A stretch of DNA of 64,000 bases, from the NCBI GenBank assembly GCA_965116905.1, contig OZ220732.1:192001-256000 (forward strand). The letters are read 5' to 3'. The DNA is from Longimicrobiales bacterium (GTDB taxonomy: Bacteria; Gemmatimonadota; Gemmatimonadetes; Longimicrobiales; Gaopeijiaceae). A program made the position numbers and the translations under genes. Below the pieces are notes generated by a model. The model ran no database searches and was not told the origin of the DNA. It was given only the letters and a program-made list of their open reading frames with translations. Positions 26,440 through 44,478 of the stretch are shown here, piece by piece (the stretch's first letter is position 1; the number at the start of each line of letters is the position of its first letter).

Positions 26440-26775
26440 GAGACCATCAACGCATCGTACTTCAAGGCCCGCTGCCTGGCGATCCTCGACCGTGTGAGGG
26501 AAACGGGCGAACGCATCGTGATTCTCAAGCGGGGGGAGCCCGTGGCGGAGCTCGGACCGCCCAGCCGCGCGGAATCGCGGTATCCGCAAGCGGAACTGAA
26601 GGGCACGGTCACGGTGCTCGGTGACATCGTCGGGCCGGTCGTGCCGGAGCACCACTGGGACAGCCTGACGGGCACCGGCACGACCCCCGCCGACGCAGCG
26701 CCCGGCGAGGCCGCAGGTGAGGCTGCAGGTGAGGCCGACGCACGCAAGCGAACCCCGTGGAAGGGCGGCGAGTGA
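26437..26775 (+). CDS. Phd/YefM-family antitoxin
   Basis: INASYFKARCLAILDRVRETGERIVILKRGEPVAEL. Confidence 0.92.
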   Translation: METINASYFKARCLAILDRVRETGERIVILKRGEPVAELGPPSRAESRYPQAELKGTVTVLGDIVGPVVPEHHWDSLTGTGTTPADAAPGEAAGEAAGEADARKRTPWKGGE

Positions 26776-27188
26776 CGACGCTCCCGAAGACCCGCGTCCT
26801 CCTGGACACCCACATCCTGATCTGGTGGCTTCAGGGTGGTGGTCCACTGTCGTCCGAGCAACGACGGGTCCTCCATGCGGCCGACGCGGACTCGCCACTG
26901 CGCGTATCCGACATATCCCTCTGGGAGATCGCGACGCTTCACAGCCTGGGCCGTATACGGCTTGCGCTTCCGCCCAGGGAGTGGCTGGAGAAGGCGGTCG
27001 CGCCGCCGCTCGTTCGGCGCTACGGCATCTCCCCGGCGATCGCGGCCGAAGTGGCCGCCCTGCCGGACTCCTTTCACCGGGACCCCGCCGACCGTATTCT
27101 CGTTGCGACCGGGCGCATCATGGGAGCGACGCTGCTCACGCACGACCGTCACATCGTCGACTCCGGACTGGTGCCGACGCTGAACTGA
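26772..27188 (+). CDS. vapC: VapC (PIN-domain) toxin
   Basis: LLDTHILIWW, SDISLWEI, HRDPADRILVAT, LLTHD; GTGA overlap. Confidence 0.93.
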   Translation: MTTLPKTRVLLDTHILIWWLQGGGPLSSEQRRVLHAADADSPLRVSDISLWEIATLHSLGRIRLALPPREWLEKAVAPPLVRRYGISPAIAAEVAALPDSFHRDPADRILVATGRIMGATLLTHDRHIVDSGLVPTLN

Positions 27189-27200
27189 GACGGTCGGCCG

Positions 27201-27240
27201 CCGCGCCCGCAGCCGCCGCGCCGCGCCCGCAGCCGCCGCG
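27201..27240. repeat. Exact 20-bp tandem duplication (ccgcgcccgcagccgccgcg x2)
   Basis: Read directly; right flank of the vapBC-type module. Confidence 0.95.
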
Positions 27241-27262
27241 CCCCGAAGAAGGAACCGTGCCA

Positions 27263-28825
27263 ATGAGACCGACGACGAACCCCACCTCCCGCCGCGCCTT
27301 CCTCAGGGCGGGGACCGCAGCGCTGACCGGCGCGATGATCGCCCCGCAGCGCATCCTCGCCGATCCCTACGCACCGCTCACGGTGCATCCCGACCCCGCG
27401 CGGCCCGGCTCCGGGCGTGGGGCGGCCGCTCTCTCATCCCCAATCAGAGTCCAGGGCGTGGTGCGCTCGCAAGGCGTGGGGCTTCCCCGTGTGCCGGTCT
27501 CCGACGGCGTCCAGGTCGTCGACACCGCGGACGACGGCACCTTCGAACTCATCACGACGCCCGACCGGGGCTTCGTCTGGTTCACGACGCCATCGGGCTA
27601 CCGGATCCCGCTTAACGCCCCCGGCACCGCCCGCTTCTACCAGCCGCTGTCCGACGGGCGGGAGCAAACGGCCGTCTTCGAACTCGAACCCGATCCGGTG
27701 CCCCACGACAACCACACACTCCTGCTCCTCGGAGACATTCAGACGGAAGACCCCACGGAGATGGGGTGGTTCCTCTCGCAGTCGGTGCCGGACCTGCGGG
27801 AGACGGTTGCGGGACTCGGCGGCGAGCATGCCTTCGGCATTTCCTGCGGCGATATCATGTTCGACAACCTTGAACTCTACCCGGACTACGAGCGCGGGGT
27901 CGGCGAGACCGGCATCCCCTTCTTCCAGGTCGTCGGCAACCACGACCTCGACATGGACAACCTGACCGACCAGGCCTCGACCGAGACCTTCAGCCGGCAC
28001 TTCGGGCCCCGGTACTATTCGTTCGACCGTGGGGCCGTGCACTACGTGGTCCTGGACGACGTGTTCTGGCACGGCAGCGGCTACATCGGCTACCTGGGGG
28101 CCGATGCGCTCGCGTGGCTGGAGCGGGACCTTGCCCGTGTCGAGCCGGGGTCGCCCGTGATCGTGGCGACGCACATCCCCGTGCTCGGCAGCCAGCACCT
28201 GCGCCGCGGCGAGGAACGTCCGGGCACGGCGCTCGCGATCATGAACCGCCAGGCCCTCTACCGGCTGCTGGAGCCGTTCGAGGCGCATATTCTCACCGGC
28301 CACACGCACGAGTGCGAGCATGTGTTCGAGCAGGGCACGCACGAGCACGTTACCGGGGCGATCTGCGGAGCGTGGTGGAGCGGCCCGATCTGCCATGACG
28401 GCACCCCAAACGGCTATTGCGTGTACACCGTCCGCGGCGAGGAAGTCCGCTGGCGCTACAAGGCGACCGGGCATCCGGACGACCATCAGATGCGGCTCCA
28501 CCTGAGCGGCGGCGGCCCGTCGTCACCAAGCGGCCCGTCGTCAGCAGGCGAACTGGTCGCCAACATCTGGAACTGGGATCCGGAGTGGACGGTTCGGTGG
28601 TTCGCGGACGGTGAGCCCATGGGTGCGATGCCCAGGCATCCGGGCTTCGATCCCCTTAGCGCGCAACTGCACACGGGACCCGACCTGCCGCCACGGCGGA
28701 CCTGGGTGGAGCCGGTCCCGACCGATCACATCTTCCGCGCGCCGCTCACGGGTGAGGAAAGCGTTATCGTGGTCGAAGCCACCGATCGGTTCGGTGAGGC
28801 TTTCGTCGAGGAATGGCGGAGGTAG
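27263..28825 (+). CDS. Tat-exported calcineurin-like metallophosphoesterase with N- and C-terminal accessory domains
   Basis: SRRAFL Tat signal; GDIQ, CGDI, GNHD, THIP, GHTH, GAWWSG...DGTPNGY. Confidence 0.9.
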   Translation: MRPTTNPTSRRAFLRAGTAALTGAMIAPQRILADPYAPLTVHPDPARPGSGRGAAALSSPIRVQGVVRSQGVGLPRVPVSDGVQVVDTADDGTFELITTPDRGFVWFTTPSGYRIPLNAPGTARFYQPLSDGREQTAVFELEPDPVPHDNHTLLLLGDIQTEDPTEMGWFLSQSVPDLRETVAGLGGEHAFGISCGDIMFDNLELYPDYERGVGETGIPFFQVVGNHDLDMDNLTDQASTETFSRHFGPRYYSFDRGAVHYVVLDDVFWHGSGYIGYLGADALAWLERDLARVEPGSPVIVATHIPVLGSQHLRRGEERPGTALAIMNRQALYRLLEPFEAHILTGHTHECEHVFEQGTHEHVTGAICGAWWSGPICHDGTPNGYCVYTVRGEEVRWRYKATGHPDDHQMRLHLSGGGPSSPSGPSSAGELVANIWNWDPEWTVRWFADGEPMGAMPRHPGFDPLSAQLHTGPDLPPRRTWVEPVPTDHIFRAPLTGEESVIVVEATDRFGEAFVEEWRR

Positions 28826-28830
28826 TCGAG

Positions 28831-29994
28831 ATGAAGCAGATGAAGGTGGGTGGGAGAGCGACGATCCTCCCGCTGGCAGCGGTTCTCTGCGGAGGTGCGT
28901 TCGCCTGCGAGCCCGCGCCCTCGCCCGCGCCCGCCGAGCCATGGACACTGGAAGACGTCACGCCCAACACCGACGACGGCATCCGCGTCCTGATCATTCA
29001 CGACATGGAGGGACTGTCGGGCCAGGACGATCCGCGCAGCTACCGGTTCGGGACCGAGCAGTATCCGTCGGGCCAGGAGATGCTCGCCGCGGACGTCAAC
29101 GCGGTGGTGGACGGGCTCTTCGCCGGCGGCGCGACCGAAGTGGTGATCGCCGACGGGCACGGGAGCGGCAACTCCGACCCCGATCTGCGCACCGACCTGC
29201 TGGACGCGCGCGCCGTCCAGATCATCCGCGACGAGCCCTTCGACACCTACTTCGACCTCCCCGAGTCGGAGGAACTCGACGCGGTGGCCGTGGTCGGCAT
29301 GCATTCCAGGACGGGAAGCGGCGGGTTTGCCGCCCACACCTTCACCCTGGGCATCGACCTGCTGATCAACGGCCAGCCCATCACCGAGACCGAGCTCGTC
29401 GCGCTGTCCTGGGGTCGGTTCGGCGTGCCGGTCATCTTCGCATCCGGCGACGACAAGCTGCGCGGAGACCTCGCGACCATGCCCTGGATCGAATACGTGA
29501 CGGTCAAGGATGCTCCGGCGGCCGACACCGCCATCACCCGCCCCGTCGACGAGGCCCGCGCGGATCTGCGGGACGGGGCGCGGCGGGCGGTGGAGCGGCT
29601 CGCGGAAGCGAAGTCGATGCGGGCGGTGCTGCCGGTGCGGGCGTCACTGCACGCGGTGCCGCCGGCGAATCTTCGCTTTCTGGAGGGAATCCCCGGCCTG
29701 GATGGGGGCGACGGAACCGGCCCCGCGTACGCCGACGACACCTACAGCTTCACGGCCTCGGACATGCGCGAAGCCTACGACGGCCTGGTGGCGGTAGTGG
29801 GCATGGCGCGCGTCGGCTACCAGAGTCTGTTGCAGGAGGTCGTCGCCGCGAGACCGGACGCGGGCGAGATCCAGTCGGCCTTCGGCGAGGCGCTGTGGCA
29901 GCGCTGGCACGACCAGGAGTCGGGGCGATACGAGCGGCCGGGGGCGGGCGAGGCGATCGGTCAGATGATCCGGCGGTTTCACGGATACCGGTGA
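28831..29994 (+). CDS. M55 (DppA-like) D-aminopeptidase with an N-terminal export signal
   Basis: HDMEGLSG, DVNAVVDG, DGHGSG, VGMHSR, AHT, TETEL, SGDD. Confidence 0.85.
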   Translation: MKQMKVGGRATILPLAAVLCGGAFACEPAPSPAPAEPWTLEDVTPNTDDGIRVLIIHDMEGLSGQDDPRSYRFGTEQYPSGQEMLAADVNAVVDGLFAGGATEVVIADGHGSGNSDPDLRTDLLDARAVQIIRDEPFDTYFDLPESEELDAVAVVGMHSRTGSGGFAAHTFTLGIDLLINGQPITETELVALSWGRFGVPVIFASGDDKLRGDLATMPWIEYVTVKDAPAADTAITRPVDEARADLRDGARRAVERLAEAKSMRAVLPVRASLHAVPPANLRFLEGIPGLDGGDGTGPAYADDTYSFTASDMREAYDGLVAVVGMARVGYQSLLQEVVAARPDAGEIQSAFGEALWQRWHDQESGRYERPGAGEAIGQMIRRFHGYR

Positions 29995-30004
29995 GACGGA
30001 CGCC

Positions 30005-32680
30005 ATGACCCTGCCTTCAGTACTTCTCTTCGCCGCCGCGACGGGCATGCAATCTCCCCAGCAGGTCGGCATGGCGACCGACTCCATCCTCACGCACACC
30101 GACGGCGTGGTGCCGCCGACCGTTACCGCCGTGCGGGCCGATCCGGCCCCCGTCCTCGACGGCATCCTCGACGACCCGGTCTGGCAAAGGGCCATCCCCG
30201 TCACGGGATTCCGCCGCGATCGGCCCGGCGACGGCCTCCCCGCGGCCGAGAGGACCGAGGTGCGGGTCGCCTACACCGACGACGCGCTCTACGTCGGGGC
30301 GCGCATGTTCGACCGCGACCCGTCCCGGATATCCCTGCTCCGCGGCCGGCGCGATTCGTTCATGCAGCCCAACGACCAGTTCCTGATCCAGCTCGACTCC
30401 TACCACGATCACCGCACCACCTTCGTCTTCGGGGTGACCCCGGCGGGCGGACGCAACGACCTGGTCGCGCCCAACGACGGATTCCAGGGGATGGACGCGG
30501 GCTGGGATCCGGTGTGGGACGCCGCGACCCGCGTGGACTCGCTGGGCTGGGTGGCCGAGATGCGCATCCCCTTCTCGCAACTCCGCTTCCGGGAGGGCGA
30601 CCGCCAGGTCTGGGGCGTCAACTTCCGCCGCGACATCCTGCACGCGGGCGAGGCGGTGGACTGGGCGTGGAGACCGTCCACGGAGAGCGGCCTCGCTTCG
30701 TCGTTCGGACACCTGCTGGGACTGGAAGACGTGCGCAGGCCGTCGCGCCTGGAAGTCCTTCCCTATGCGGTCACGCGCGCGAGCTTCGACCAGCGCGCGG
30801 ACCCGGCGAGTCCCTTCGACGATGGCTCGGTCTACGGAGGCGCGGTCGGGCTCGACCTGAAGTACGGGCTCACCGGAGGACTGACGCTCGACGCCACCGT
30901 GAACCCCGACTTCGGGCAGGTGGAGGCGGACCCGGCCGTGGTGAATCTGACCGCCTTCGAGACCTTCTTCGAGGAGCGCCGGCCGTTCTTCGTCGAGGGC
31001 GCGGGTCTCTTCGGCTTCGGCGGGCTCGAGGGCTTGCGCTTCTTCTATTCGCGTCGGGTCGGTCAGCGTCCGGCGATCCGGGCCGGCGGCGGCCGGGGTT
31101 CCTTCGTCGACCAGCCGACCCAGTCGACCATCCTCGGCGCAGCCAAGATTTCGGGCCGGACCGACTCGGGGTGGGTCGTCGCCTTCATGAACGCCACCAC
31201 GCAGCGCGAAAACGCCCGCGTCGCCGAGGGTGCCGGCGCGCCGGTCACCGAGGTCCCGGTGGACCCGCTGTCGAACATCACGGCGCTGCGTGTCCGCCGC
31301 GACATGCGGGACGGCGACAGCTACATCGGCATGATCGCGACCGGCGTGGACCGAGACCTGAACCACGGCATCTTCGTCGTGTCCCTGCGCGACCGCGCCT
31401 TCACCGGTGGCGTGGACTTTCTCCATCGCTTCGCGAACCGCACCTACGCGCTGCAGGGCTGGGTGGGCGGCTCGCACGTCAGCGGCAGCCCGCACGCGAT
31501 GCAGCGGGCGCAACGGTCGTCCGTGCGCTACTACCAGCGGCCCAACCAGGACTACGTGACCTTCGACCCCGACCGGACGTCGCTCGGCGGCTACGCGGGT
31601 GAACTGGCGATGCGCAAGATCGCGGGCGAGTGGCTCTACGGCTTCGAGGCGAGCATGATCTCACCCGGCTTCGAGATGAACGACGCCGGCTTCCAGACGA
31701 TCGCGGACATCTACGCGCTCACCGTCGGCGGCACGCGGCGCTGGGTGGAGCCCGGCCGCTACTTCAGGTCCGCCAGCCTGACCCTGGGCGGGTCCGAACG
31801 CCGGAACTTCGGCAACCTGGTCTCTCAGCGCGAACTCTCGTTGCGCGGCAACGGCCAGACGGTGGGCTTCCACTCCCTTCGCGGCTCGCTGCGCTACGAA
31901 GTGGAGACCCTGGACCACCGCGCAACGCGAGGCGGTCCCGCAATAGTCACTCCCGCGAACTGGGGCGGCAACCTCTGGTTCAACACCGACGGACGAAAGC
32001 GTGTATCGGGAGGCCTCTCCGTCAACTTCTCGGGTGATGCCGAGGGTTCCTACTCGATCGCGGGCGGCCCCACCCTCTTCGGCCGCGGCGAGGGCCTGTT
32101 CAGCTGGAGCATCCGGCCCACCCTGAGGAAGAGCAGGAGCGCCGCCTTCTACGTCACGCAGGGCGACGACCCGGCCGCGCACGCGACCTTCGGCCGCCGC
32201 TACATCTTCGCCGAACTGGAGCAGCACTCGCTCGACGTGACGATCCGCATGGACCTCGCGCTCACTCCGCGCATGACGCTGCAGGTCTACGGCCAGCCTT
32301 TCATCGCGACCGGCGACTACGAGAACTTCATGGCGCTCCGCGAACCCCGGACCTACGACTTCCTGCGCTATGGCCAGGGCGCCGCCACGATCGGGTACTC
32401 ACTGGGCAGCGACGCCTACACCGTCATCGCGGACGACACCGGGTCCGCCGCACCGATCCGCTTCGGCAACCCCGACTTCCGCACGCGTTCCTTCCGGAGC
32501 AACGTGGTGCTGCGCTGGGAATACCTTCCGGGCTCCACCCTCTTCCTGGTGTGGAGCCAGGATCGGCGCGACTGGTTCCGCGACCCGGACTTCGACGGCG
32601 TGGGCAGCCTGCGGGGCCTCTTCTCGGACCCCATGCGCAACGTCTTCCTGATCAAGGCGAGCTACTGGCTGGACTTCTGA
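30005..32680 (+). CDS. CBM9-like / DUF5916 outer-membrane protein
   Basis: PVLDGILDDPVW, WVAEMRIPFSQLRF, LDATVNPDFGQVEADPAVVNL, FFEERRPFF, VLRWEYLPGSTLFLVW, C-terminal YWLDF. Confidence 0.85.
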   Translation: MTLPSVLLFAAATGMQSPQQVGMATDSILTHTDGVVPPTVTAVRADPAPVLDGILDDPVWQRAIPVTGFRRDRPGDGLPAAERTEVRVAYTDDALYVGARMFDRDPSRISLLRGRRDSFMQPNDQFLIQLDSYHDHRTTFVFGVTPAGGRNDLVAPNDGFQGMDAGWDPVWDAATRVDSLGWVAEMRIPFSQLRFREGDRQVWGVNFRRDILHAGEAVDWAWRPSTESGLASSFGHLLGLEDVRRPSRLEVLPYAVTRASFDQRADPASPFDDGSVYGGAVGLDLKYGLTGGLTLDATVNPDFGQVEADPAVVNLTAFETFFEERRPFFVEGAGLFGFGGLEGLRFFYSRRVGQRPAIRAGGGRGSFVDQPTQSTILGAAKISGRTDSGWVVAFMNATTQRENARVAEGAGAPVTEVPVDPLSNITALRVRRDMRDGDSYIGMIATGVDRDLNHGIFVVSLRDRAFTGGVDFLHRFANRTYALQGWVGGSHVSGSPHAMQRAQRSSVRYYQRPNQDYVTFDPDRTSLGGYAGELAMRKIAGEWLYGFEASMISPGFEMNDAGFQTIADIYALTVGGTRRWVEPGRYFRSASLTLGGSERRNFGNLVSQRELSLRGNGQTVGFHSLRGSLRYEVETLDHRATRGGPAIVTPANWGGNLWFNTDGRKRVSGGLSVNFSGDAEGSYSIAGGPTLFGRGEGLFSWSIRPTLRKSRSAAFYVTQGDDPAAHATFGRRYIFAELEQHSLDVTIRMDLALTPRMTLQVYGQPFIATGDYENFMALREPRTYDFLRYGQGAATIGYSLGSDAYTVIADDTGSAAPIRFGNPDFRTRSFRSNVVLRWEYLPGSTLFLVWSQDRRDWFRDPDFDGVGSLRGLFSDPMRNVFLIKASYWLDF

Positions 32681-34282: not shown

Positions 34283-37270
34283 ATGAGATTGCGCTACGGC
34301 ATCCTGGCGGGCCTGATCACGCTTCTGGGCACGGGAGAAGCCCTCGCCCAGACGCGTGTCCTCACGGGCACCGTCACCGACGCCACCACCGGACAGCCCA
34401 TTTCGGGCGCGGCCGTCGCCGTCACGGGAACGACCCTCGGCACCTTCACGGCAGAGGACGGCAACTTCGCCGTCTCCGTGGGGGCGGGCGAGGTCCTTCT
34501 CGACATCAGCATGCTGGGATACCAGCCGGCATCGGTCACCGTACCCGAGGGCACGAACAACATCAGCGTCACCCTCAGGGTCGACGTCCTCAACCTCGAC
34601 GAGATCGTGGTGACGGGACAGGCGACCGGAATCTCCAGGAGGAACCTCGCCAACGCGGTCTCGACGGTGAACGCGCGGGACCTTGAGCGGGTGCCCACGT
34701 GGTCCGTTGAGCAGGCGCTCCGGGGCAAGGTCGCCGGGGCGAACATCCAGTCGAACTCGGGAGCCCCGGGCGGAGGCATGCAGCTTCAGCTCCGGGGTGT
34801 ATCGACGATCCTGGGCGCACATAGACCGCTCTATGTGGTGGACGGGGTGATCGTCAGCGACCAGACAATTCCGTCGGGTGTGCACACCGTTACCGTCTCC
34901 TCTTCAAACCCTGTTCGTGGAGGCTCGCAGGACAACTCCGCAAACCGAATCGCCGACCTGAATCCCTACGACATCGAGAGCATCGAGATCCTCAAGGGGG
35001 CCTCGGCCGCCGCGATCTACGGATCGAAGGCGAACAACGGCGTGGTCATCATCCGCACCAAGCGGGGCCGGGTCGGCGCGCCGCAGTTCAACGTCACCCA
35101 GCGCTTCGGCGTCTTCCAGCTCGCCAACAAGCTCGGTCTGCGCGAGTTCACCTCGATGGACGAGGCGGTGGAGTTCTTCGGACCCCAGGCGAGGGATCAC
35201 TGGCAAGCCGGCAAGTTCTTCGACCACGAGGAGCTGCTGGCGGGCAACGAACCCCTCTCCTACGAGACTCAGGCGAGCGTGAGCGGCGGCACGGAGGACA
35301 CGCGCTACTACGCCTCGGGACTGGTGAAGCACGATGGCGGCATCATCGACAACACCTTCTACAACAAGGAGTCGCTGAAGCTCAACATCGACCAGACGCT
35401 GGGCGACCGAGTTTCCTTCAGCCTGAACACGAACGCGATTCACACCCTGGCGGGCCGCGGCATCACCAACAACGACAACCGGAGCATCAGCTACTACATG
35501 ACGCTCCCGTCCACGCCCAGCTTCGTGGATCTGCGGGCCGTCTGCGCCGACGGAAGCCGCCAGGCCGACATCGACAACTGTCCGAGCGGCACGGGCACCT
35601 ACCCCAGGAACCCGTTCGCCGGATCGAACATTCTGGAGACGGCATCGCTCGTGCGGAACGACGAGGAAGTGTGGCGCTTCGTCGGGTCCGGCAACCTCAC
35701 CTTCGACGCCATCACTTCGTCCACTCACAATCTGCGGCTGAGCGCCACCGGCGGAATCGACTTCTACAACCAGAAGAACGAGCTGTTCTCGCCGCCCGAA
35801 TCCCAGTTCGAGCCAAGCGACGGGCTTCCCGGCACGTCGGTGCTCGGGTCGGCCTACAGCCAGTACATGAACGCCAACCTGAACGCCGTCTACACCTTCA
35901 ACTCCGACGCATACCAGTCGACGACGTCCTTCGGTACCCAGTACGAGATCCGCGACCTCGACGTGAGCAGCACGATCGCGAAGAACCTCATCGGGGGCCT
36001 GCAGAACATCGACCGGGGCACTGCGACCGAGGTCAGGCAGGACCGGGAACGGATCCTCGACTTCGGCATCTTCGCTCAGGAAGAGTTGCTGATGATGGAC
36101 GAGCGGCTGCTCCTGACCGCGGGAGCGCGCGCCGACCGGAGTTCCAACAACTCCGACACCGAATCGTTCCACTTCTATCCGAAGTTCGCCGCCTCCTACC
36201 GCTTCCCCGTAGGTAGCAACCTCCTGGAAGAGGTCAAATTCCGGGGCGCCTGGGGCCAGTCGGGCAACCAGCCGGTCTACGGGCAGAAGTTCACCGAGTA
36301 CGAGGGCAGGAACATCGGGGGACTGCCAGCCCTGCGCGTACAGGGCGCCACGGCGGCGCTGGACCTGCGTCCCGAGCGCCAGACCGAGATCGAGGGCGGG
36401 GTCGACGCGACGCTCTTCGAAGACCGCGCGACGCTCGAACTGACCTACTTCAACAAGACCGTCAAGGACGTGATCCTCGAGCGCTCGCTCGCCCCGTCGA
36501 CCGGTTTCGTGGAATCCATCTTCAACGGCGGCGAGATCAATATCTGGGGTATCGAGACCGCGCTGACGGTGGTGCCGTTCTACACCAGCAACCTGCAGTG
36601 GACTTCGCGCACCACCTTCACCATGGATCGCAGCCAGGTGATCTCGCTCCCGGTGCCGCGCTTCCGGATCCAGGGATTCGGGTACTTCTACGGCACCACC
36701 GTGGCCGAAGAGGGCAGGTCACTGACGCTGCTCTGGGGCAACGGCCCCGACCCCGAAACGGGCGAGGTCGGCGTAGGCCCGCTGGCGGAATCCAACGCGG
36801 ACTTCCGCATGGGCTTCTCGAACGACATCAGCTTCGGACGGTTCAACGTCTACTCGACGCTGGATTGGCAGAAGGGCGGGACGGCCAACAATCTGACCCA
36901 GTTCCTCTTCGACCTCACCCGGAACACCGAAGACTGCAACAACATGGTGAACGGCGAGAGCGTCTGCGTGAAGCGCAACCGGGAGTTCCCCCAGAATACC
37001 GGGACCTACTTCCAGGACGCATCCTTCGTGAAACTGCGCGAACTGACCGTCAGCTACGACATGCCCGACGACATGGTCGCGAACATCTGGAGCGCGGCCC
37101 GGCACATTCGACTCAACCTGAGCAGCCGCAACCTGCTGACCTTCACCGACTACGCCGGCCTGGATCCCGAAGTCAGCAACTTCGGCAGCGAAGCGGTCGG
37201 CCGTGGCCAGGACGTGGCACCCTACCCGCCGAGCCGGAGCTTCTGGTTCTCGGTGGATGTGGGCTTCTAA
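34283..37270 (+). CDS. SusC/RagA TonB-dependent transporter
   Basis: N-terminal extension; LNLDEIVVTG; DIESIEILKGASAAAIYGSKANNGVVII; DASFVKLREL; C-terminal F. Confidence 0.95.
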   Translation: MRLRYGILAGLITLLGTGEALAQTRVLTGTVTDATTGQPISGAAVAVTGTTLGTFTAEDGNFAVSVGAGEVLLDISMLGYQPASVTVPEGTNNISVTLRVDVLNLDEIVVTGQATGISRRNLANAVSTVNARDLERVPTWSVEQALRGKVAGANIQSNSGAPGGGMQLQLRGVSTILGAHRPLYVVDGVIVSDQTIPSGVHTVTVSSSNPVRGGSQDNSANRIADLNPYDIESIEILKGASAAAIYGSKANNGVVIIRTKRGRVGAPQFNVTQRFGVFQLANKLGLREFTSMDEAVEFFGPQARDHWQAGKFFDHEELLAGNEPLSYETQASVSGGTEDTRYYASGLVKHDGGIIDNTFYNKESLKLNIDQTLGDRVSFSLNTNAIHTLAGRGITNNDNRSISYYMTLPSTPSFVDLRAVCADGSRQADIDNCPSGTGTYPRNPFAGSNILETASLVRNDEEVWRFVGSGNLTFDAITSSTHNLRLSATGGIDFYNQKNELFSPPESQFEPSDGLPGTSVLGSAYSQYMNANLNAVYTFNSDAYQSTTSFGTQYEIRDLDVSSTIAKNLIGGLQNIDRGTATEVRQDRERILDFGIFAQEELLMMDERLLLTAGARADRSSNNSDTESFHFYPKFAASYRFPVGSNLLEEVKFRGAWGQSGNQPVYGQKFTEYEGRNIGGLPALRVQGATAALDLRPERQTEIEGGVDATLFEDRATLELTYFNKTVKDVILERSLAPSTGFVESIFNGGEINIWGIETALTVVPFYTSNLQWTSRTTFTMDRSQVISLPVPRFRIQGFGYFYGTTVAEEGRSLTLLWGNGPDPETGEVGVGPLAESNADFRMGFSNDISFGRFNVYSTLDWQKGGTANNLTQFLFDLTRNTEDCNNMVNGESVCVKRNREFPQNTGTYFQDASFVKLRELTVSYDMPDDMVANIWSAARHIRLNLSSRNLLTFTDYAGLDPEVSNFGSEAVGRGQDVAPYPPSRSFWFSVDVGF

Positions 37271-37292
37271 CGTGAACGGGAGAATGAGACCA

Positions 37293-38666
37293 ATGACTAG
37301 ACAACTGGGCCGTCTCCTGACGGCAGGTCTCTTCGCCACCGTCTTCACGGCGTGCGAACTGACCGTACCCGATTTCAACAACCCAAGCGTTGAGGATCTG
37401 CAGAACAACCCGAACACGGCGGCCATCGCGGCCGCGGCGCAGGGCCTGCTGTTCGACACGCGTCTCACCGCGGCCGACATGGTGCACTGGGTCGGCGCCT
37501 TCGGCCGCGAAGTCTACCCCATGGCGCCCACCGGTTCTTCCCTGCCGGGCAGCGTCCGCGACCCCTGGACCCAGACGCTCTTCGTGGGGACCCAGGTCTG
37601 GGCCGAAGCGTACAAGAACATGCGCAACGCCAACCTGCTTCTGGAGGCGTTGGCGGGCGCGGAGATACCCGAACCCGACAAGGCGGCGGTGCGTGGTTTC
37701 ACCAAGACCATCCAGGCGTACGACCTGCTGCACATCGCGGTAACCCGGCGGCACCTGGGGGCACCCGTCGCGGTCGGGACCGACCCCAACGAGCCGCCGG
37801 CTCCGATTGTGGGAGAAAACGAGGTCTACGGCCACGTGATCAGCCTGCTCGACGAAGCGCGCGGCGATCTGCAGGCCGCCTCTTCCTTCCCCTTCGGCGT
37901 GACGGCCGGGCTTGCCAACTTCGCCTCGCCGGGCGACTTCATCCGCCTCAACCGCGCGATCAAGGCACGCGCGGAGGTGCATCGCAACAACTGGTCCGGC
38001 GCCCTCCAGGCGGTGGCGGAGTCCTTTGCGGGAACCAACGTGCCGCTTGCCTACGGGGCGCAGCACAGCTGGTCGGTCAACTCGGGCGACCTGGTCAACC
38101 CGGCGAACCGGCCCGACCTGCTGTACGCCAACACGCGCTTCCGCACCGAGGCGCAGGCCCGTGCGGACGGATCACCCGACCTCCGCTTCCAGACCAAGTT
38201 CAAGGAGGTTGGGGCGTATCAGCTGCTCGAAGTGGCTTCGGATCTGCAGTACACACTGTACGAGAGTCCGAGCGCTCCGTTCGTCTGGGTCAAGAACGAG
38301 GAGTTGATCCTGATTCGCGCCGAGGCAAACCTTGCAACGGGCAACCGCGCCGCGGCGATCGAGGACATCAACTTCATCCGCATGAACTCGGGTGGCCTCG
38401 AGCCGCTGCCGGATCCCTATCCCGGATCTGACGACGACCTGCTGAACGAACTGCTCTACAACAAGCGGTTCTCGCTGGTCTTCGAGTGGGGGCACACGTG
38501 GATAGACATGAACCGCTACGACAAGCTGCTGGATATCCCCGTGCTGGGTCCGCCCAGTGCCGACCAGCGGCTTCACAGCGCGATGCCCTACCCGCTGAGC
38601 GAGTGCCTCCCGCGCGAACCGGAGGTTCCGGCGGGGTGCATGACTCAGCAGGGTGTCATCCCGTAG
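37293..38666 (+). CDS. SusD/RagB lipoprotein
   Basis: Lipobox FTAC; EELILIRAEA; INFIR; KRFSLVFEWGHTWIDM; follows susC. Confidence 0.92.
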   Translation: MTRQLGRLLTAGLFATVFTACELTVPDFNNPSVEDLQNNPNTAAIAAAAQGLLFDTRLTAADMVHWVGAFGREVYPMAPTGSSLPGSVRDPWTQTLFVGTQVWAEAYKNMRNANLLLEALAGAEIPEPDKAAVRGFTKTIQAYDLLHIAVTRRHLGAPVAVGTDPNEPPAPIVGENEVYGHVISLLDEARGDLQAASSFPFGVTAGLANFASPGDFIRLNRAIKARAEVHRNNWSGALQAVAESFAGTNVPLAYGAQHSWSVNSGDLVNPANRPDLLYANTRFRTEAQARADGSPDLRFQTKFKEVGAYQLLEVASDLQYTLYESPSAPFVWVKNEELILIRAEANLATGNRAAAIEDINFIRMNSGGLEPLPDPYPGSDDDLLNELLYNKRFSLVFEWGHTWIDMNRYDKLLDIPVLGPPSADQRLHSAMPYPLSECLPREPEVPAGCMTQQGVIP

Positions 38667-39067
38667 GAGCAGCCGGACTCCGGCTTGTCGCCGCTCTTAT
38701 CGCCGCGGCGGTCGCCGGATGCGCTTCGAGTTCGGAGCGCTCCGGCGAACCGCCCGGCATGGGCGACGAGGCGGCGTGGGAGGGTGCGCCCCAGAGCAAG
38801 CTGCACGTAAACAACCGCAACTGGCTCGACATGCGCATCTACGCGTTGCGCGGGGCGGACCGGATGGCCCTTCTTACGATCACAAGCATGAGGCGCGACT
38901 CGGTGCCCCTGCCACGGAGCCTGCTCATGGGCTCGGGGTTCCGGTTGCAGGCCGATCCCATCGGCGATCGGCCATACCGCAGCAGTGTGATCTACGTGCG
39001 TCCCGGACAAACCGTGTGGTGGAGGCTCGAGAACGTGCTGGGCCAGTCCAGCCTGTGGATCTATTGA
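38636..39067 (+). CDS. Small lipoprotein of unknown function
   Basis: Hydrophobic stretch with lipobox VAGC; VNNRNWLDMRIY beta-rich domain. Start (GTG 38636) uncertain. Confidence 0.6.
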   Translation: MHDSAGCHPVGAAGLRLVAALIAAAVAGCASSSERSGEPPGMGDEAAWEGAPQSKLHVNNRNWLDMRIYALRGADRMALLTITSMRRDSVPLPRSLLMGSGFRLQADPIGDRPYRSSVIYVRPGQTVWWRLENVLGQSSLWIY

Positions 39068-39095: not shown

Positions 39096-41075
39096 ATGAC
39101 CAGCCATCGGAAACCGGCGGGTATCCGCCGCGTGCCCGGAGCCGCCCTCACCCTCACCGCCGTCGCAATCCTGACAGCGGCCACAGGTCTCCAGGCCCAG
39201 AAGCCCGACATCCTCACCATCGACCAGCTGCTTTCCATCGAATCGGTGGTCTCCGGCTCGCCGGCCTGGTCGCCCGACGGCTCGGGAATCCTGTTCCAGT
39301 CGTCCCTCTCGGGCGGGCTGATGACCATCTCCCCCGACGGCGGCTTCCCCACACGCCTGCCGATCGAGATGGGCAGCTCGGGCCACTTCCTGGCCTCCCA
39401 GTTGCCGGGCTGGTCGCCGTCCGGCAACTGGATCTCGTACGTGTCCGACAAGGACGGCTCGCCCGAGATCTGGATCTGGTCCACCCGTGACGGCACCGAG
39501 AGGCGGCTGACCGGCCTGGGCGGGCGCATCAACTCGATGACCTGGTCGCCCGACGAGCGCTCGATCGCCTTCGCCGGCGACCGCTACGGCAACTACGACA
39601 TCTGGACCGTCGAGGTCGCCACCGGGCGCGTCCAGCGCATCACCAGCGACAAGCTCTACGAGGTCTTCCCGACCTGGACCCCCGACTCGGAGCGCATCCT
39701 CTACGTACGCCTCAACGACACCTGGGAGGACCACGACGTGATCGAGGTCGCTCCCGACGGCTCGGGCGCGCGCACCGTGCTCCAGGACTCCGACTTCTTC
39801 GACTATGGCGCCGGCACCACCTTCGCCTATCCGCGGGTCTCCCCCGACGGCAGCCAGGTCCTCTTCCGCTCCCACCGCAGCGGCTGGATCAACTATTGGC
39901 TCGCCCCGATCGGAGGTGGAGAACCCCGTCCGATCGCCGCCGCCGAGGCCGACCAGAGCAGCGCCAGCTGGTCGCCGGACGGCAGCATGATCGCGTACAT
40001 CGAGAACCACAACGGCCATCACGACCTGCGCGTTGTTGCCGCGGACGGCGGGAAGCCACGCGTGCTGGCGTCGCCGGGCGGAATGGGCGGCAATTCCGCA
40101 GGCGGCGTCGCGTCCAATCCCTCCTGGTCGCCCGACGGACGGTCGATCTCGTACACGATGGCCGACCTTCTGACCCCTCAGGATCTGTATGTGGTGTCTT
40201 TGGAGGACGGCCATGGCCGCCAGCTCACCTCGTCCATGCCGGCCGGGAACTTTGGGGCGCGATTGATCCTGCCGGAGAAGGTTCACTACCCCAGCACGGA
40301 CGGATACTCGATCCCCGCCTACCTGTACCGCCCGGTGGGAGTCCCGGCGGGTGAGCGGGCGCCCGGCATCCTGTGGATCCACGGCGGACCCACCTCGCAG
40401 TTCAACGACACCTTCCAGCAGCACGTGCAGTTCTTCGCCCAGCGCGGGTACGCGGTGCTGCTGCCCAACATCCGGGGCAGTTCCGGGTACGGGAAAGCCT
40501 TCGCCGACGCCAACAACAACTGCTGGGGCCACTGCGACCTGGAAGACGTGCTCGCCGGCGTCGACTTCCTGAAGACGCAGCCCGAGGTGGATCCGGACCG
40601 GATCGGCCTGACGGGCACCAGCTACGGCGGCGTGATGAGCATGTACGCGGCGTCGTTCGCGCCGGACGCCTTCCGCGCGATCATCCCCGGCTCGGGGTAC
40701 GGCGACTGGATCCACTTCTACACCGGCGAGAACGAGCTGCGGCACATCAAGCTGCTCGAGCATGAACTCGGGCCCTTCGAGACGAGCCAGGACGTATGGC
40801 GCAACAGCTCGGCGATCTTCGAGATCGACAAGGTCTCGACGCCGATCTTCATGGTGCACGGCGAGGGGCGGTACCCGGGGTCGGACCAGTCCGAGATCTT
40901 CGCGCAGGCGCTGGAGAACTTCTACAAGCCGTACGAGTACACGACGTACCCGAACGAGAACTACTACGTCCGGGGCAAGGCCAACCGGCGCCAGATGCTG
41001 TTCGACATGCTGGACTTCTTCCGCCGTTTCCTGAACGACGAAATGGTGGACACGGGCGAAAGGATGAACCGATGA
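39096..41075 (+). CDS. S9-family peptidase-like protein with PD40 propeller (paralog 1; non-canonical triad)
   Basis: Signal peptide; WSPDG repeats; WIHGGP, PNIRGSSGYG, GTSYGG; HGEGRYP and YPNENYY at the Asp and His positions. Confidence 0.9.
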   Translation: MTSHRKPAGIRRVPGAALTLTAVAILTAATGLQAQKPDILTIDQLLSIESVVSGSPAWSPDGSGILFQSSLSGGLMTISPDGGFPTRLPIEMGSSGHFLASQLPGWSPSGNWISYVSDKDGSPEIWIWSTRDGTERRLTGLGGRINSMTWSPDERSIAFAGDRYGNYDIWTVEVATGRVQRITSDKLYEVFPTWTPDSERILYVRLNDTWEDHDVIEVAPDGSGARTVLQDSDFFDYGAGTTFAYPRVSPDGSQVLFRSHRSGWINYWLAPIGGGEPRPIAAAEADQSSASWSPDGSMIAYIENHNGHHDLRVVAADGGKPRVLASPGGMGGNSAGGVASNPSWSPDGRSISYTMADLLTPQDLYVVSLEDGHGRQLTSSMPAGNFGARLILPEKVHYPSTDGYSIPAYLYRPVGVPAGERAPGILWIHGGPTSQFNDTFQQHVQFFAQRGYAVLLPNIRGSSGYGKAFADANNNCWGHCDLEDVLAGVDFLKTQPEVDPDRIGLTGTSYGGVMSMYAASFAPDAFRAIIPGSGYGDWIHFYTGENELRHIKLLEHELGPFETSQDVWRNSSAIFEIDKVSTPIFMVHGEGRYPGSDQSEIFAQALENFYKPYEYTTYPNENYYVRGKANRRQMLFDMLDFFRRFLNDEMVDTGERMNR

Positions 41076-43099
41076 GACGCATTGACACCCTCTCCCGCAG
41101 CCTTGTGGCTTTGATCCTCGCGGGGGGACTCGCCTGCCAGACCGACGCTCCGGCCGGGGGAGATGCGGGCGGTTCGGCAACACCCGCGGACGCTTCGGCG
41201 CCTGACGGAGCCATCTCCGCCGCCGAACTCGTCGACCTGACCGCGGCGGTGGGCGGCACCCATCCGCCCAGGTGGTCGCCGGACGGCTCGCGGATCACGT
41301 TCGTCTCCGGCGGCGACCTGGGCGCGGTCAGGACGGAAGACGGCGCCTTCGAGATCCTGACCGAGGACCTGTCGCTGAGCGGCGTCGGGTCGCTGGGGGC
41401 GCCGCAGCCCATCTGGTCGCCCGACGGCCGCTGGATCGGCTACACCTCGGACAAGAGCGGCGCGCCGGACATCTGGCTCTGGTCGGCCGTGGAGGGGGAC
41501 GGGATGCGGGCCGGCGCCGACGTGCAGCTGACCGGGCTGTCGGCGCGGGCCAACGGGCTGGCGTGGTCACCCGACGGCACCCGGATCGCGTTTTCCGGCG
41601 ACCGGTTCGGCAACATGGACATCTGGACCGTGTCCGTGCCGGACGGCAAGGTAAGCCGCCTGACCGACGACCCGCTCTACGAGGGCTATCCCAGCTGGAC
41701 GCCCGATGGAAGCCGGCTTCTCTACGTGCGCATGGACGATCGCTGGGTGGACCACGATGTCATCGAGGTGGACCCGGACGGGAAGAACCCGCGCACGGTC
41801 GTGCAGGACCGGGGGTTCTTCGATTACCGGGCCGGGCGGGCCTTCGCGTCGGCGCAGGTGTCGCCGGACGGGGAGACGGTGCTGTTTCGGTCGCAGAGCA
41901 GCGGATGGCTGAACTTCTGGGTGGTGCCGCGGGACGGCGGCGGCGAGCCCGGCGGCGCCGAGCCCCGCCAGATCGCCGCATCGAACTACGACCAGAGCGA
42001 CGCGCGCTGGTCCCCCGACGGCAACTGGATCAGCTACACCGAGAACCGCGACGGCGTGCACTCGCTGCGCCTCGTCTCGGCCGACGGCTCGAAGCACAGG
42101 GTGCTGGTGGACCCGGAGGTGGGCGCCGCGCTGCGGGCGGAGTGGTCACCGGACGGCAGCCGGATCAGCTACACGATGGAGACGCCCACGCGCCCCGCCG
42201 AGCTGTTCGTGCTCGACATCGAGTCCGGCGAGAGCACGCTCCTTCACAGCACCGTCGCGGCGGGCTCGGCCGAGAAGCTGCACATGCCCGAGAAGGTGAG
42301 CTATCCCAGCAGCGACGGCCTCACGATCGAGGCGTACCTGCACCGGCCGCCGGGCGCGGAGCCGGGTGAGCGGTTCCCGGGCGTGATGTGGATCCATGGC
42401 GGGCCCACGTCACAATTCGACGACCAGTTCCGCCGACACCAGCAGGTGCACTTCTTCGCGCAGCGTGGGTACGTCGTCCTCATGCCCAACATCCGCGGGA
42501 GCTCGGGATACGGCCTCGAGTTCGAGGACCTCAACAACGGCTGCTGGGGCCACTGCGACCTGGAAGACGTGCTCGCGGGCGTAGACTACCTGAAAACACT
42601 GCCCGACGTCGACCCCGACCGGATCGCGGTGACAGGGACCAGCTACGGCGGCATCATGACGATGGACGCGGTGGCGTTCGCGCCCGGCGTGTTCCAGGCC
42701 GCGATCGCGCTGTCGGGCTATGGCGACATGACCGACTTCCACACCAGGGTGCACGAGCTGCAGCACATCAAGCTCCTGGAGTACGAGCTCGGTCCCTACC
42801 CCGAGAACCGGGACGTCTACCTGAACAGCTCGGCCATCCTGAAGGCCCATGAGGTGACCACGCCCACTTTCGTGATTCAGGGCGAGGGGGTCGCGGCCGA
42901 CTGGCGGCTGCGCGAGGACCAACCGCAGGCAGCGCTCGACTTCGCGCGCAAGCTCGATCAGCACTACAAGATCGTGCGCTACAAGGCCTACCCGGGCGAG
43001 GGATACTACGTGTACGGGCGGGACAACACGATCCAGAAGCTCCACGACATGCTGGGCTTCTTCGAGGAGTTTCTGGTGACGGAAATCGGCGGTATGTAA
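41072..43099 (+). CDS. S9-family peptidase-like lipoprotein with PD40 propeller (paralog 2; non-canonical triad)
   Basis: ATGA overlap; lipobox GLAC; WSPDG repeats; WIHGGP, GTSYGG; QGEGV and YPGEGYY. Confidence 0.9.
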   Translation: MRRIDTLSRSLVALILAGGLACQTDAPAGGDAGGSATPADASAPDGAISAAELVDLTAAVGGTHPPRWSPDGSRITFVSGGDLGAVRTEDGAFEILTEDLSLSGVGSLGAPQPIWSPDGRWIGYTSDKSGAPDIWLWSAVEGDGMRAGADVQLTGLSARANGLAWSPDGTRIAFSGDRFGNMDIWTVSVPDGKVSRLTDDPLYEGYPSWTPDGSRLLYVRMDDRWVDHDVIEVDPDGKNPRTVVQDRGFFDYRAGRAFASAQVSPDGETVLFRSQSSGWLNFWVVPRDGGGEPGGAEPRQIAASNYDQSDARWSPDGNWISYTENRDGVHSLRLVSADGSKHRVLVDPEVGAALRAEWSPDGSRISYTMETPTRPAELFVLDIESGESTLLHSTVAAGSAEKLHMPEKVSYPSSDGLTIEAYLHRPPGAEPGERFPGVMWIHGGPTSQFDDQFRRHQQVHFFAQRGYVVLMPNIRGSSGYGLEFEDLNNGCWGHCDLEDVLAGVDYLKTLPDVDPDRIAVTGTSYGGIMTMDAVAFAPGVFQAAIALSGYGDMTDFHTRVHELQHIKLLEYELGPYPENRDVYLNSSAILKAHEVTTPTFVIQGEGVAADWRLREDQPQAALDFARKLDQHYKIVRYKAYPGEGYYVYGRDNTIQKLHDMLGFFEEFLVTEIGGM

Positions 43100-43208: not shown

Positions 43209-43664
43209 TCAGTCCTCAACCAGGCGCTTGCCCATGCTCAGCACGTCGTCTTCCGCGTATCCGATCGAGCGGTAGAACCCAACGGCTGCGGTGTTCGATC
43301 TCCTGACTTGCACGCTGATCTTCGGACAGCCCATCTCGCGGAGCCGTTCTTCGGCCTGGTCCATCAGGAGCCGTCCGAAGCCCCGCTCTCTGCTGTCCGG
43401 GGCAACGGCCAGATAGTTGATCCAGCCGCGGTGGCCTTCGTACCCCGCCATCACGGTCGCGACCGGCCGGCCGTCAAGGAGTCCTACGAGAAACAGCTCC
43501 CGCTGGACCCGCAGCTTGCGTCCGATGTCCTTGATCGGATCGTTCCACGGCCTGCTCAGACCGCACTTGTGCCATAGCGCGACGACGGCGTCTTCGTCCG
43601 ACTCGCGGTAAGGGCGGATCTCCAGCTCAACCTCCCGGCGGAGACGTGATCGGGAACTCGACAA
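43209..43664 (-). CDS. GNAT acetyltransferase (YpeA-like)
   Basis: EIRPY, RPWNDP..DI.RK, VMAGYEGHRGWINYLAV, GCPKI, FYRSIGY. Start uncertain (TTG 43664 or CTG 43625). Confidence 0.9.
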   Translation of the reverse strand: MSSSRSRLRREVELEIRPYRESDEDAVVALWHKCGLSRPWNDPIKDIGRKLRVQRELFLVGLLDGRPVATVMAGYEGHRGWINYLAVAPDSRERGFGRLLMDQAEERLREMGCPKISVQVRRSNTAAVGFYRSIGYAEDDVLSMGKRLVED

Positions 43665-44478
43665 TGGCGTCGACGATCCCGCGAGCCACGCGGTCGGGCT
43701 GCCCGATGATCAGTTCGCGGTCGGCAGCGCTGGTGAGGAAGCCGGTCTCGATGATCGCCGCGATGGTCATGGGATGCAGCGCGTGCTCGTAGCGCCGGAA
43801 GTTGAAGGCGTAGTAGTTGCGCATGCGCCGGGTCGTGTCCGGAAGCCGCCGGATGCCTGTGGCCGCGCCGTAGGTGCGCTTGAGCAGGTCGACGAAGCCT
43901 GGAGCCCGCCCGGTCGCATCGCGGCTCGGCGCCGCCACCCGGTAGCCTCTCACGTTCCGGTCGTTGCTCGCGTCCGCGTGGATGGCAAGGAAGAGGTGGG
44001 CGCGGTAGCCGGGCGGCACCACGGCCGGCAGGATGTCAACCACATAGCCCAACTCTTCCAGCATGGCGCCCGTGCGGCGGGCGATCACGAGATTGACCTC
44101 CCATTCGGCGGTGCCGTTCCAGTTGGCGCCGTTGCCGCGCAGCCGTGACAGCTCGCGCGGGGCTTCGTTCGCCCGCCAGTGACCCACCTGCAGGCCGATG
44201 CGTACGGGTCCGTCCGGCGGCTGCCACTCAGCGGGCGTGGGGATGGGGCCAGGGTACCGGTTGCGGTAGCGCCACCGCCTGCGCTGCTGCTGCGGCGGCT
44301 CCTGGGCTCGCTGGACAACAGGCGTGTCCTGTACGAAGGCGAGCGCCAGCACTTCATCGGCTGCGAGCTCGACTCCACCTGCGGGCTCGATCCTACCGGC
44401 GGGCCCGACTCCACCGGCAGACCCGCCCAATGCGATCAAACACCACGCCCCAACGGCTGCCGACACGATGATCTTCAC
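43627..44478 (-). CDS. N-acetylmuramoyl-L-alanine amidase (Amidase_3-like), exported
   Basis: GLQVGH, EWEVNL, LAIHAD, IIETGFLTS: Zn ligands and catalytic Glu pattern. Confidence 0.85.
   Translation of the reverse strand: MKIIVSAAVGAWCLIALGGSAGGVGPAGRIEPAGGVELAADEVLALAFVQDTPVVQRAQEPPQQQRRRWRYRNRYPGPIPTPAEWQPPDGPVRIGLQVGHWRANEAPRELSRLRGNGANWNGTAEWEVNLVIARRTGAMLEELGYVVDILPAVVPPGYRAHLFLAIHADASNDRNVRGYRVAAPSRDATGRAPGFVDLLKRTYGAATGIRRLPDTTRRMRNYYAFNFRRYEHALHPMTIAAIIETGFLTSAADRELIIGQPDRVARGIVDAIVEFPITSPPGG

Follow-up and report, generated by a model that had tools for sequence, protein, structure and literature searches.

A clade of S9C-related proteins that keeps the nucleophilic serine, lacks the canonical catalytic histidine and aspartate, and may have relocated its base

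The closest described relatives of the proteins reported here are the S9C enzymes, comprising acylaminoacyl peptidases and S9 carboxypeptidases (8WT1, 7EP9, 4HXE, 5YZM, 5L8S, and 1VE6), with which they share a common fold and the motifs HGGP, PNxRGSxGYG, and GxSYGG. We analysed a 64,000-nucleotide stretch of DNA (hereafter the window) from a Longimicrobiales bacterium (GenBank assembly GCA_965116905.1, contig OZ220732.1, positions 192,001 to 256,000 of the forward strand), in which two adjacent genes encode S9C-like proteins with tyrosine in the slot of the catalytic histidine and no aspartate at the canonical acid position. They belong to a clade that differs from the S9C enzymes in having no Asp after strand beta7, no His after beta8, and a displaced Arg526-type residue, and in having gained Glu547 and His550, Tyr535, Ser533, Tyr624, a Cys pair, and propeller Trp, Asp, and Tyr residues (numbered by the first window protein; Arg526 is numbered by the acylaminoacyl peptidase ApAAP, 1VE6).

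Among inactive S9B homologues, DPP6 and DPP10 also combine the S9 fold with a broken triad (4WJL, Z 25.4). These proteins have lost the nucleophilic Ser, whereas the clade keeps it in 147/147 representatives (sampling below) and has lost the His and the Asp. The gibberellin receptor GID1 resembles the clade in having lost the His and retained the Ser (PMC3531792), but it keeps the Asp and has no new His; it is a plant protein with a different lid and without a propeller. Precedents for a moved or dropped triad member are provided by lipases and LinB (acid after beta6) and by the Ser-His dyad of IroE (PMC7034887, PMC11878206); all of these retain the His on that of beta8, whereas in the clade it is gone from the beta8 loop and the beta6 position is Ser533. 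Reviews of alpha/beta-hydrolases describe acid migration and nucleophile swaps but treat the His as fixed on the beta8 loop (PMC11878206, PMC7034887), where one of them calls it totally conserved (PMC11878206). No account of the clade or of a relocated His was found in the literature searched, which did not extend to MEROPS, most subscription papers, or supplements.

Paralog 1 (P0001, 659 amino acids [aa], positions 39096-41075) consists of a seven-bladed PD40 propeller and an S9 catalytic domain with a short acid loop. Paralog 2 (P0002, 675 aa, 41072-43099) has the same architecture with a long acid loop carrying Trp-Arg, and its ATG at 41072 overlaps the paralog 1 stop codon (ATGA); these genes, and all features within them, lie on the + strand. 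The two proteins are 52% identical over 648 columns and, judged by eye, have a signal-peptide-like N-terminus (paralog 1) and a lipobox-like GGLAC at Cys22 (paralog 2). Both matched PF00326 (Peptidase_S9; 135 and 129 bits) as well as PD40, and neither reached the curated cut-off of a named NCBIfam family (for P0001, AtxE2 isopeptidase NF033523, 148 against 400 bits, and Dpp5 NF053518, 147 against 900). AlphaFold modelled the propeller and hydrolase domain of P0001 with a mean confidence (pLDDT) of 90.6, placing His550 within helix 548-558 and Tyr623 on the loop that follows the last strand, and the hydrolase domain of P0002 at 91.3. Full-length Foldseek comparison with S9C enzymes gave template modelling (TM) scores of 0.74-0.80, and the catalytic domain aligned with S9C structures at Z 28.6-31.6 (root-mean-square deviation [rmsd] 1.9-2.8 Å, 248-261 residues, 24-28% identity). 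The nearest solved structure was 8WT1 (Z 31.6, rmsd 1.9 Å, 256 residues), and ApAAP aligned at Z 28.6 (rmsd 2.3 Å, 253 residues). Searches of the ESM Atlas returned generic S9 clusters only.

The motifs HGGP, RGSSGYG, and GTSYGG, described in a first-pass annotation of this DNA, are present in both genes, and the nucleophile is encoded by AGC in each (Ser509, 40620..40622; Ser524 of paralog 2, 42641..42643). The oxyanion hole is also kept across the family: Gly431 was found in 147/147 representatives and Tyr510 in 146/147 (ApAAP equivalents Gly369 and Tyr446; PMC4394528), and Gly430 is essentially invariant too. The proteins thus have the S9 propeller and alpha/beta-hydrolase architecture, the nucleophilic Ser in a GxSxGG elbow, and the oxyanion hole; by alignment, the S9 catalytic Asp after beta7 and His after beta8 are missing. 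Because of these two absences they should not be filed as standard S9 peptidases, although they are S9C-related by descent and fold.

Conservation was assessed over 344 dereplicated catalytic domains, drawn from a pool of 723 (all proteins plus loci L031 onward) after restriction to those covering at least 200 profile positions. The family comprises 147 of these, scoring at least 230 bits on the family profile, and the canonical set the 197 that scored at most 212 bits; the 132 family representatives bearing His550 are referred to as the core. A search of representatives at 50% identity likewise met a sharp boundary into canonical S9 proteins. Closer homologues came from the 120 best-listed matches to each paralog, out of 773 for paralog 1 and 807 for paralog 2; both totals include canonical relatives. 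As the fast alignment misregistered helix 547-553 in canonical sequences, canonical counts for that helix come from a slower, more accurate alignment.

The loss of both triad residues held throughout the family. The canonical His was present in 194/197 canonical rows and 1/147 family representatives, and the acid-loop Asp (HG+4) was present in 115/116 His-bearing rows and 0/21 Tyr-type rows (slower alignment). Pairwise HMMER alignments to solved S9 enzymes placed Tyr623 on the catalytic His and left the acid loop free of Asp, as had been claimed, and the register of the His slot is gap-free on both sides in 131/132 core members (beta8 aromatic at -5; Asn, Gly, or Ser at +7). In the window genes the acid loops read HGEGRYP (paralog 1, 40857..40877; shorter than the canonical HGxxDxR[VC]P) and QGEGVAADWR (paralog 2, 42878..42907), and the His loops read YPNENYY and YPGEGYY, in agreement with the first-pass reading. 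The His-slot Tyr is encoded by TAC at 40962-40964 and 43004-43006, within the pairs Tyr623-Tyr624 (40962..40967) and Tyr645-Tyr646 (43004..43009), respectively. This Tyr-Tyr pair recurred in 121/121 paralog-1-type and 118/119 paralog-2-type sequences among the best-listed homologues of each, the lone exception being out of frame. Within the source genome, 42 open reading frames (ORFs) matched the domain profile; besides the two window genes and a misaligned hydrolase that is unrelated, these comprise 39 with a normal His.

That these sequences are errors or decaying pseudogenes, which the earlier annotation had argued against, has nothing in its favour beyond the missing triad residues themselves, and we regard it as almost certainly wrong given their conservation across phyla. 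All 384 distinct family domains retain the Ser, and both synonymous codons were found at Ser509, His550, and Tyr624 over 164 loci. Contigs of run X4, which may be the source sample, agreed with the His-slot codons with zero differences.

Alongside these losses, the family has gained a set of residues led by His550. This His was found in 132/147 family representatives and a His at position 550 in 2/116 His-bearing canonical rows (slower alignment). Core members carry Tyr624 (132 of 132, never Phe), Glu547 (124), and Tyr535 (126), and the 116 full-length members of the core all have Trp210, Phe235, Asp236, and Tyr237, with His213 in 111. Among the best-listed homologues of paralog 1, Ser509, Glu547, His550, Tyr623, and Tyr624 were invariant (121/121), as were the equivalent Glu and His in the best-listed paralog 2 set (119/119). 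P0001 contains 16 histidines, of which only His550 and the propeller His213 are both highly conserved and not common to canonical S9 proteins. The family-specific motif Glu547-Leu-Arg549-His550 lies at 40734..40745, at the N-terminus of the S1-pocket helix, and corresponds to Glu562-Leu-Gln-His565 in paralog 2 (42755..42766). The blade-4 loops of the propeller with Trp210, His213, and Phe-Phe-Asp236-Tyr237 (39723..39806) are conserved family-wide and probably face the catalytic domain.

These positions were mapped onto ApAAP through P0336, which aligns to it without gaps: His550 corresponds to Phe485, Glu547 to Asp482, Leu553 to Phe488, Tyr535 to Val471, and Ser533 to Ala469. In ApAAP, Phe485 contacts a docked active-site ligand (PMC4394528), Asp482 belongs to an R113-E88-R526-D482 network beside the catalytic site, and R526 contacts the catalytic Asp524 (PMC3338720, PMC3827171). 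By this mapping, the gained His550/Glu547 pair sits beside the shortened loop from which Asp524 and Arg526 were deleted. In alpha/beta-hydrolases more broadly, the catalytic imidazole is coordinated by the residue two positions beyond the acid, a part taken in some families by residues outside the conserved positions (PMC7034887).

Helix and loop also vary together. An Arg is present either at position 549 or in the acid loop in 123/124 Glu547 members: short-loop sequences have Arg549 (82/85), and long-loop sequences have an Arg of their own (39/39), just one of them with Arg549 as well. The window genes represent one short-loop type (Arg549) and one long-loop type, in which the loop Arg replaces Arg549, and this covariation suggests that the S1-pocket helix and the acid loop touch. 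In a subclade with Val547, a new acid-loop Asp is present in 8/8 members at a site where 37/39 long-loop relatives have Trp, although this represents a single evolutionary event. Comparing representatives with and without His550, Tyr624 fell from 132/132 to 8/15, Glu547 from 124/132 to 0/15, and Tyr237 from 116/116 to 9/13. All three erode where His550 is absent, which ties them to it.

We tentatively read these proteins as active exported serine hydrolases that use His550 as a relocated base and work with a SusC/SusD importer, and give this reading somewhat less than an even chance. With the same reserve, conservation and covariation would fit a catalytic His that moved off the beta8 loop to the S1-pocket helix and a rebuilt Ser-His-acid triad, whose acid and Arg trade places between helix and loop across subclades. 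Removal of the Asp-x-Arg loop would open space for His550 to reach Ser509 and to act as general base from the S1-pocket helix, and an aromatic ring (Tyr or Phe623) would occupy the old His slot. Glu547, or the loop Asp in one subclade, would orient His550 and/or anchor a substrate-binding Arg, and the substrate site would be shaped by Tyr624, Tyr535, and propeller Trp210, Asp236, and Tyr237. The adjacent SusC/SusD would probably import a peptide or acyl-amide as substrate, which the two paralogs, one soluble and the other lipid-anchored, would cleave in the periplasm. The loss of the canonical His and Asp coincides with the gain of His550, which we count in favour of relocation. We count likewise the presence of His550 in 18/18 genomes with one match, and the fact that, in the three genome sets inspected (G062, G789, and genus g19), copies without His550 belong to genomes with several family copies. 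Frequent peptidase and amidase neighbours and the linkage of close SusD homologues to family genes (below) also speak for the reading.

The first-pass annotation had proposed an undescribed subfamily with a rewired active site. The subfamily stands as one for which no description was found, and of the options then listed a relocated His (His550) is the best supported. Ser-Tyr chemistry through the His-slot Tyr fares poorly: position 623 is Tyr in 125/132 core members and Phe in 7/132, these Phe forms are spread over two or three lineages at minimum, all keeping His550, and the slot hydroxyl is therefore dispensable; the invariant Tyr is Tyr624. An obligate heterodimer of the two paralogs, also suggested earlier, is unnecessary, since a complete His550-type gene is present in each of the 18 genomes (11 of one genus) where just one copy was detected; other genomes have 3-7 scattered copies.

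Several observations weigh against His550 as the base. The 132/132 occurrence of His550 in the core is circular, because the core was defined by it, and only the other positions count. Its placement near Ser509 is taken from homology to ApAAP, where Phe485 forms a pocket wall and does not mark the usual place of the base; His550 may therefore do no more than recognise substrate. As Glu547 covaries with Arg, it may be an Arg anchor rather than an acid. The 15 family representatives without His550 are in part nested, implying at least two secondary losses, and in part near the base of the tree on long branches. These members still keep Ser509 (15/15), the oxyanion glycines, and His213 (12/13), and a Ser that depended on His550 should have drifted after such losses, so its retention fits a role without His550. 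One metagenome contig (L128/L129) carries an array of about four family genes; the copies read there have no His550, and all retain the Ser. Two copies of this array also lack most of the S1 helix, and on another contig (L131) the His is back in the canonical slot. As for the proposed importer and substrate, 65/84 genomes with a SusD-type match had no detected family gene. Peptidases and amidases are frequent among the 144 neighbouring ORFs scanned (S15, M28, M14, M20, gamma-glutamyltranspeptidase, and amidohydrolase), but such bacteria are rich in S9 genes in general (bioRxiv 10.1101/2024.09.22.614393), and because they are peptidase-rich anyway this neighbourhood is weak evidence.

The same retention of Ser without His550 (15/15) also fits the main rival, in which there would be no protein base at all and the clade would be a GID1-like binder or sensor, or an enzyme or covalent trap whose base is supplied by the substrate. 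We consider this rather unlikely, though the strongest of the alternatives; under it, His550, Tyr624, Tyr535, and the Arg would serve recognition while the Ser binds or attacks a ligand triad-free. The mapping of His550 to a specificity-pocket residue agrees with such a role, as do GID1 itself, in which the His is lost and the Ser and Asp bind gibberellin (PMC3531792), and the adjoining SusC/SusD importer and expansions of up to seven paralogs, which fit diversified binders. However, a His and a nearby acid were gained exactly where the triad was lost, an Asp apparently compensates for the loss of Glu547, and oxyanion-hole Gly430, Gly431, and Tyr510 remain essentially invariant; the acid has been lost as well, unlike in GID1. 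A Ser-Tyr-His-Glu wire, in which Tyr624 activated by His550-Glu547 is the base or acid for Ser509, would account for Tyr624 being present in 132/132 members with His550, never as Phe, and eroding with it, and ligand contacts of the residue following the catalytic His are tabulated for several alpha/beta-hydrolases (PMC7034887, Table 2). Yet homology would put Tyr624 toward the leaving group and His550 toward S1, and the His-slot Tyr itself tolerates Phe, which leaves this relay improbable.

We give still less weight to the idea that His213, in the W-x-x-H loop of propeller blade 4, completes the site upon domain closure, which we think very unlikely. It is present in 123/129 full-length representatives, and its presence in 12/13 His550-less ones would explain their retained Ser, but it is replaced by Arg or Gln in 5/116 otherwise intact members (including L060, a close orthologue of paralog 1), the Asp preceding it is variable, and in the model a blade strand begins with it, which is typical of a structural position. 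The ferric-binding protein FbpA uses a Tyr-Tyr-His-Glu set of iron ligands. A metal site of Glu547, His550, Tyr623, and Tyr624 would match this precedent, these four gained residues being typical Fe(III) ligands next to a TonB-dependent transporter gene, but the ligands are not all invariant (Phe623 in 7/132, and a residue other than Glu at 547 in 8/132, Val in one subclade, with His550 kept), and we see only the slimmest prospect for it.

Other candidate residues were tried and rejected. Migration of the acid to beta6 (position XIV, ApAAP Ala469) is not seen, as this position is Ser533 (Ser in 120, Ala in 7, and Gly in 5 of 132). Four other histidines were discounted as the base (His588 in 114/147, His479 in 85/147, His540 in 47/147, and His443 in 43/147), and Lys552, considered as a beta-lactamase-type base, is Gln in 27/132. 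Asp438 is conserved but corresponds to the interdomain hinge residue Asp376 of ApAAP, and Gln435 is conserved at a position common in canonical members.

A large natural clade with the Ser and without the beta8 His offers a direct test of base relocation, with controls built in: the Tyr/Phe623 variants, the subclade that swapped Glu for a loop Asp, and the His550-less paralogs. If His550 is the base, the clade would have a triad topology new to a fold that is among the most studied, and annotation that relies on the triad would miscall such proteins as inactive. If it is not, these proteins would be GID1-like binders in bacteria or substrate-assisted enzymes linked to a SusC/SusD importer, likewise without description in the literature searched.

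After removal of the three trait stretches, the tree of a 77-row subsample united its 55 family rows in a single clade (SH-aLRT 99), and the two window paralogs fell into different subclades of the family tree. Named loci are mostly from Gemmatimonadota, with some from Acidobacteriota, Gracilimonas, Aminicenantes, Anaerolineae, and others. A family match was found in 39/301 genomes of the window's phylum, 2/301 of the phylum of G061, and 1/301 of the phylum of G064 (counts include each centre genome, with eight candidates scored per genome); among genomes of the window's genus, 20/36 had a match and 18 had two. The genome G062 (L110, L115, L118, and L120-L125), whose Eubacteriales label may be wrong, carries six family copies, with an outer-membrane beta-barrel transporter gene beside one of them. 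The Cys pair of Cys476-Trp-Gly-His-Cys480 (40521..40535 in paralog 1) is probably a disulfide of exported members: it was found in 216/221 full-length proteins, and four of the five proteins without it also have no hydrophobic N-terminus by a crude heuristic, a pattern consistent with a disulfide in exported forms. Two complete canonical S9 units per chain were seen in P0246/P0388, P0256, P0261, and P0324. The homologue search at longer lengths passed over proteins of 520-749 aa; its matches were mostly canonical S9 proteins of great length, with one fused family member among them. In this protein (P0389, 1424 aa), the family enzyme lies behind RNA polymerase alpha C-terminal and sigma-region-4-like domains (PF03118, PF04545), a fusion that may be a read-through or assembly artefact.

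Upstream of paralog 1 on the + strand lie a SusC/RagA TonB-dependent transporter gene (34283..37270; TIGR04056, 497 bits against a cut-off of 368), a SusD-like gene (37284..38666; PF07980, E 3e-5; start codon uncertain), and a small lipoprotein-like ORF (38637..39067; start uncertain) whose C-terminal 102 aa have no family match. In Gracilimonas and in further families of Gemmatimonadota, family genes are likewise flanked by related SusC/SusD genes (SusC 45-51% identical), and each of the 13 nearest SusD homologues adjoins a family gene. RNA-library contigs from run X1 span all 30 bins and take in the flanking genes as well, so that DNA carry-over is possible, and those of run X2 cover only a relative's SusC/SusD and paralog 1; neither run demonstrates transcription. 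Further upstream on the same strand (26717-32680) are genes for a calcineurin-like phosphoesterase, an M55 D-aminopeptidase (28813-29994), and a DUF5916 protein (30005-32680), and downstream on the opposite strand (43209-44478) are genes for a GNAT acetyltransferase and an Amidase_3 protein.

At other family loci, three further kinds of neighbour recurred. In Acidobacteriota (L082, L083, L096, L098, L099, and L104), a gene of about 570-596 aa lies directly 3' of most family genes, and it encodes a gamma-glutamyltranspeptidase in the three loci scanned (L082, L096, and L104), these organisms being related rather than independent. An unannotated exported alpha/beta-hydrolase of about 580 aa (GGSTGGW; weak PF00756, CE1-like) adjoins Tyr-clade genes in several lineages (L092:9890-11626, L141:3233-4954, L226:13137-14957, L228:7170-9149, L230:6787-8538, three copies in L123, and two in L106); in the source genome it is found away from the window genes (G000:C1:4083643-4085319). 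A third neighbour, of about 480 aa, matches choice-of-anchor B weakly, is without a solved relative, and was found at L078 (three copies), L213 (two copies), L214, L215, and L230.

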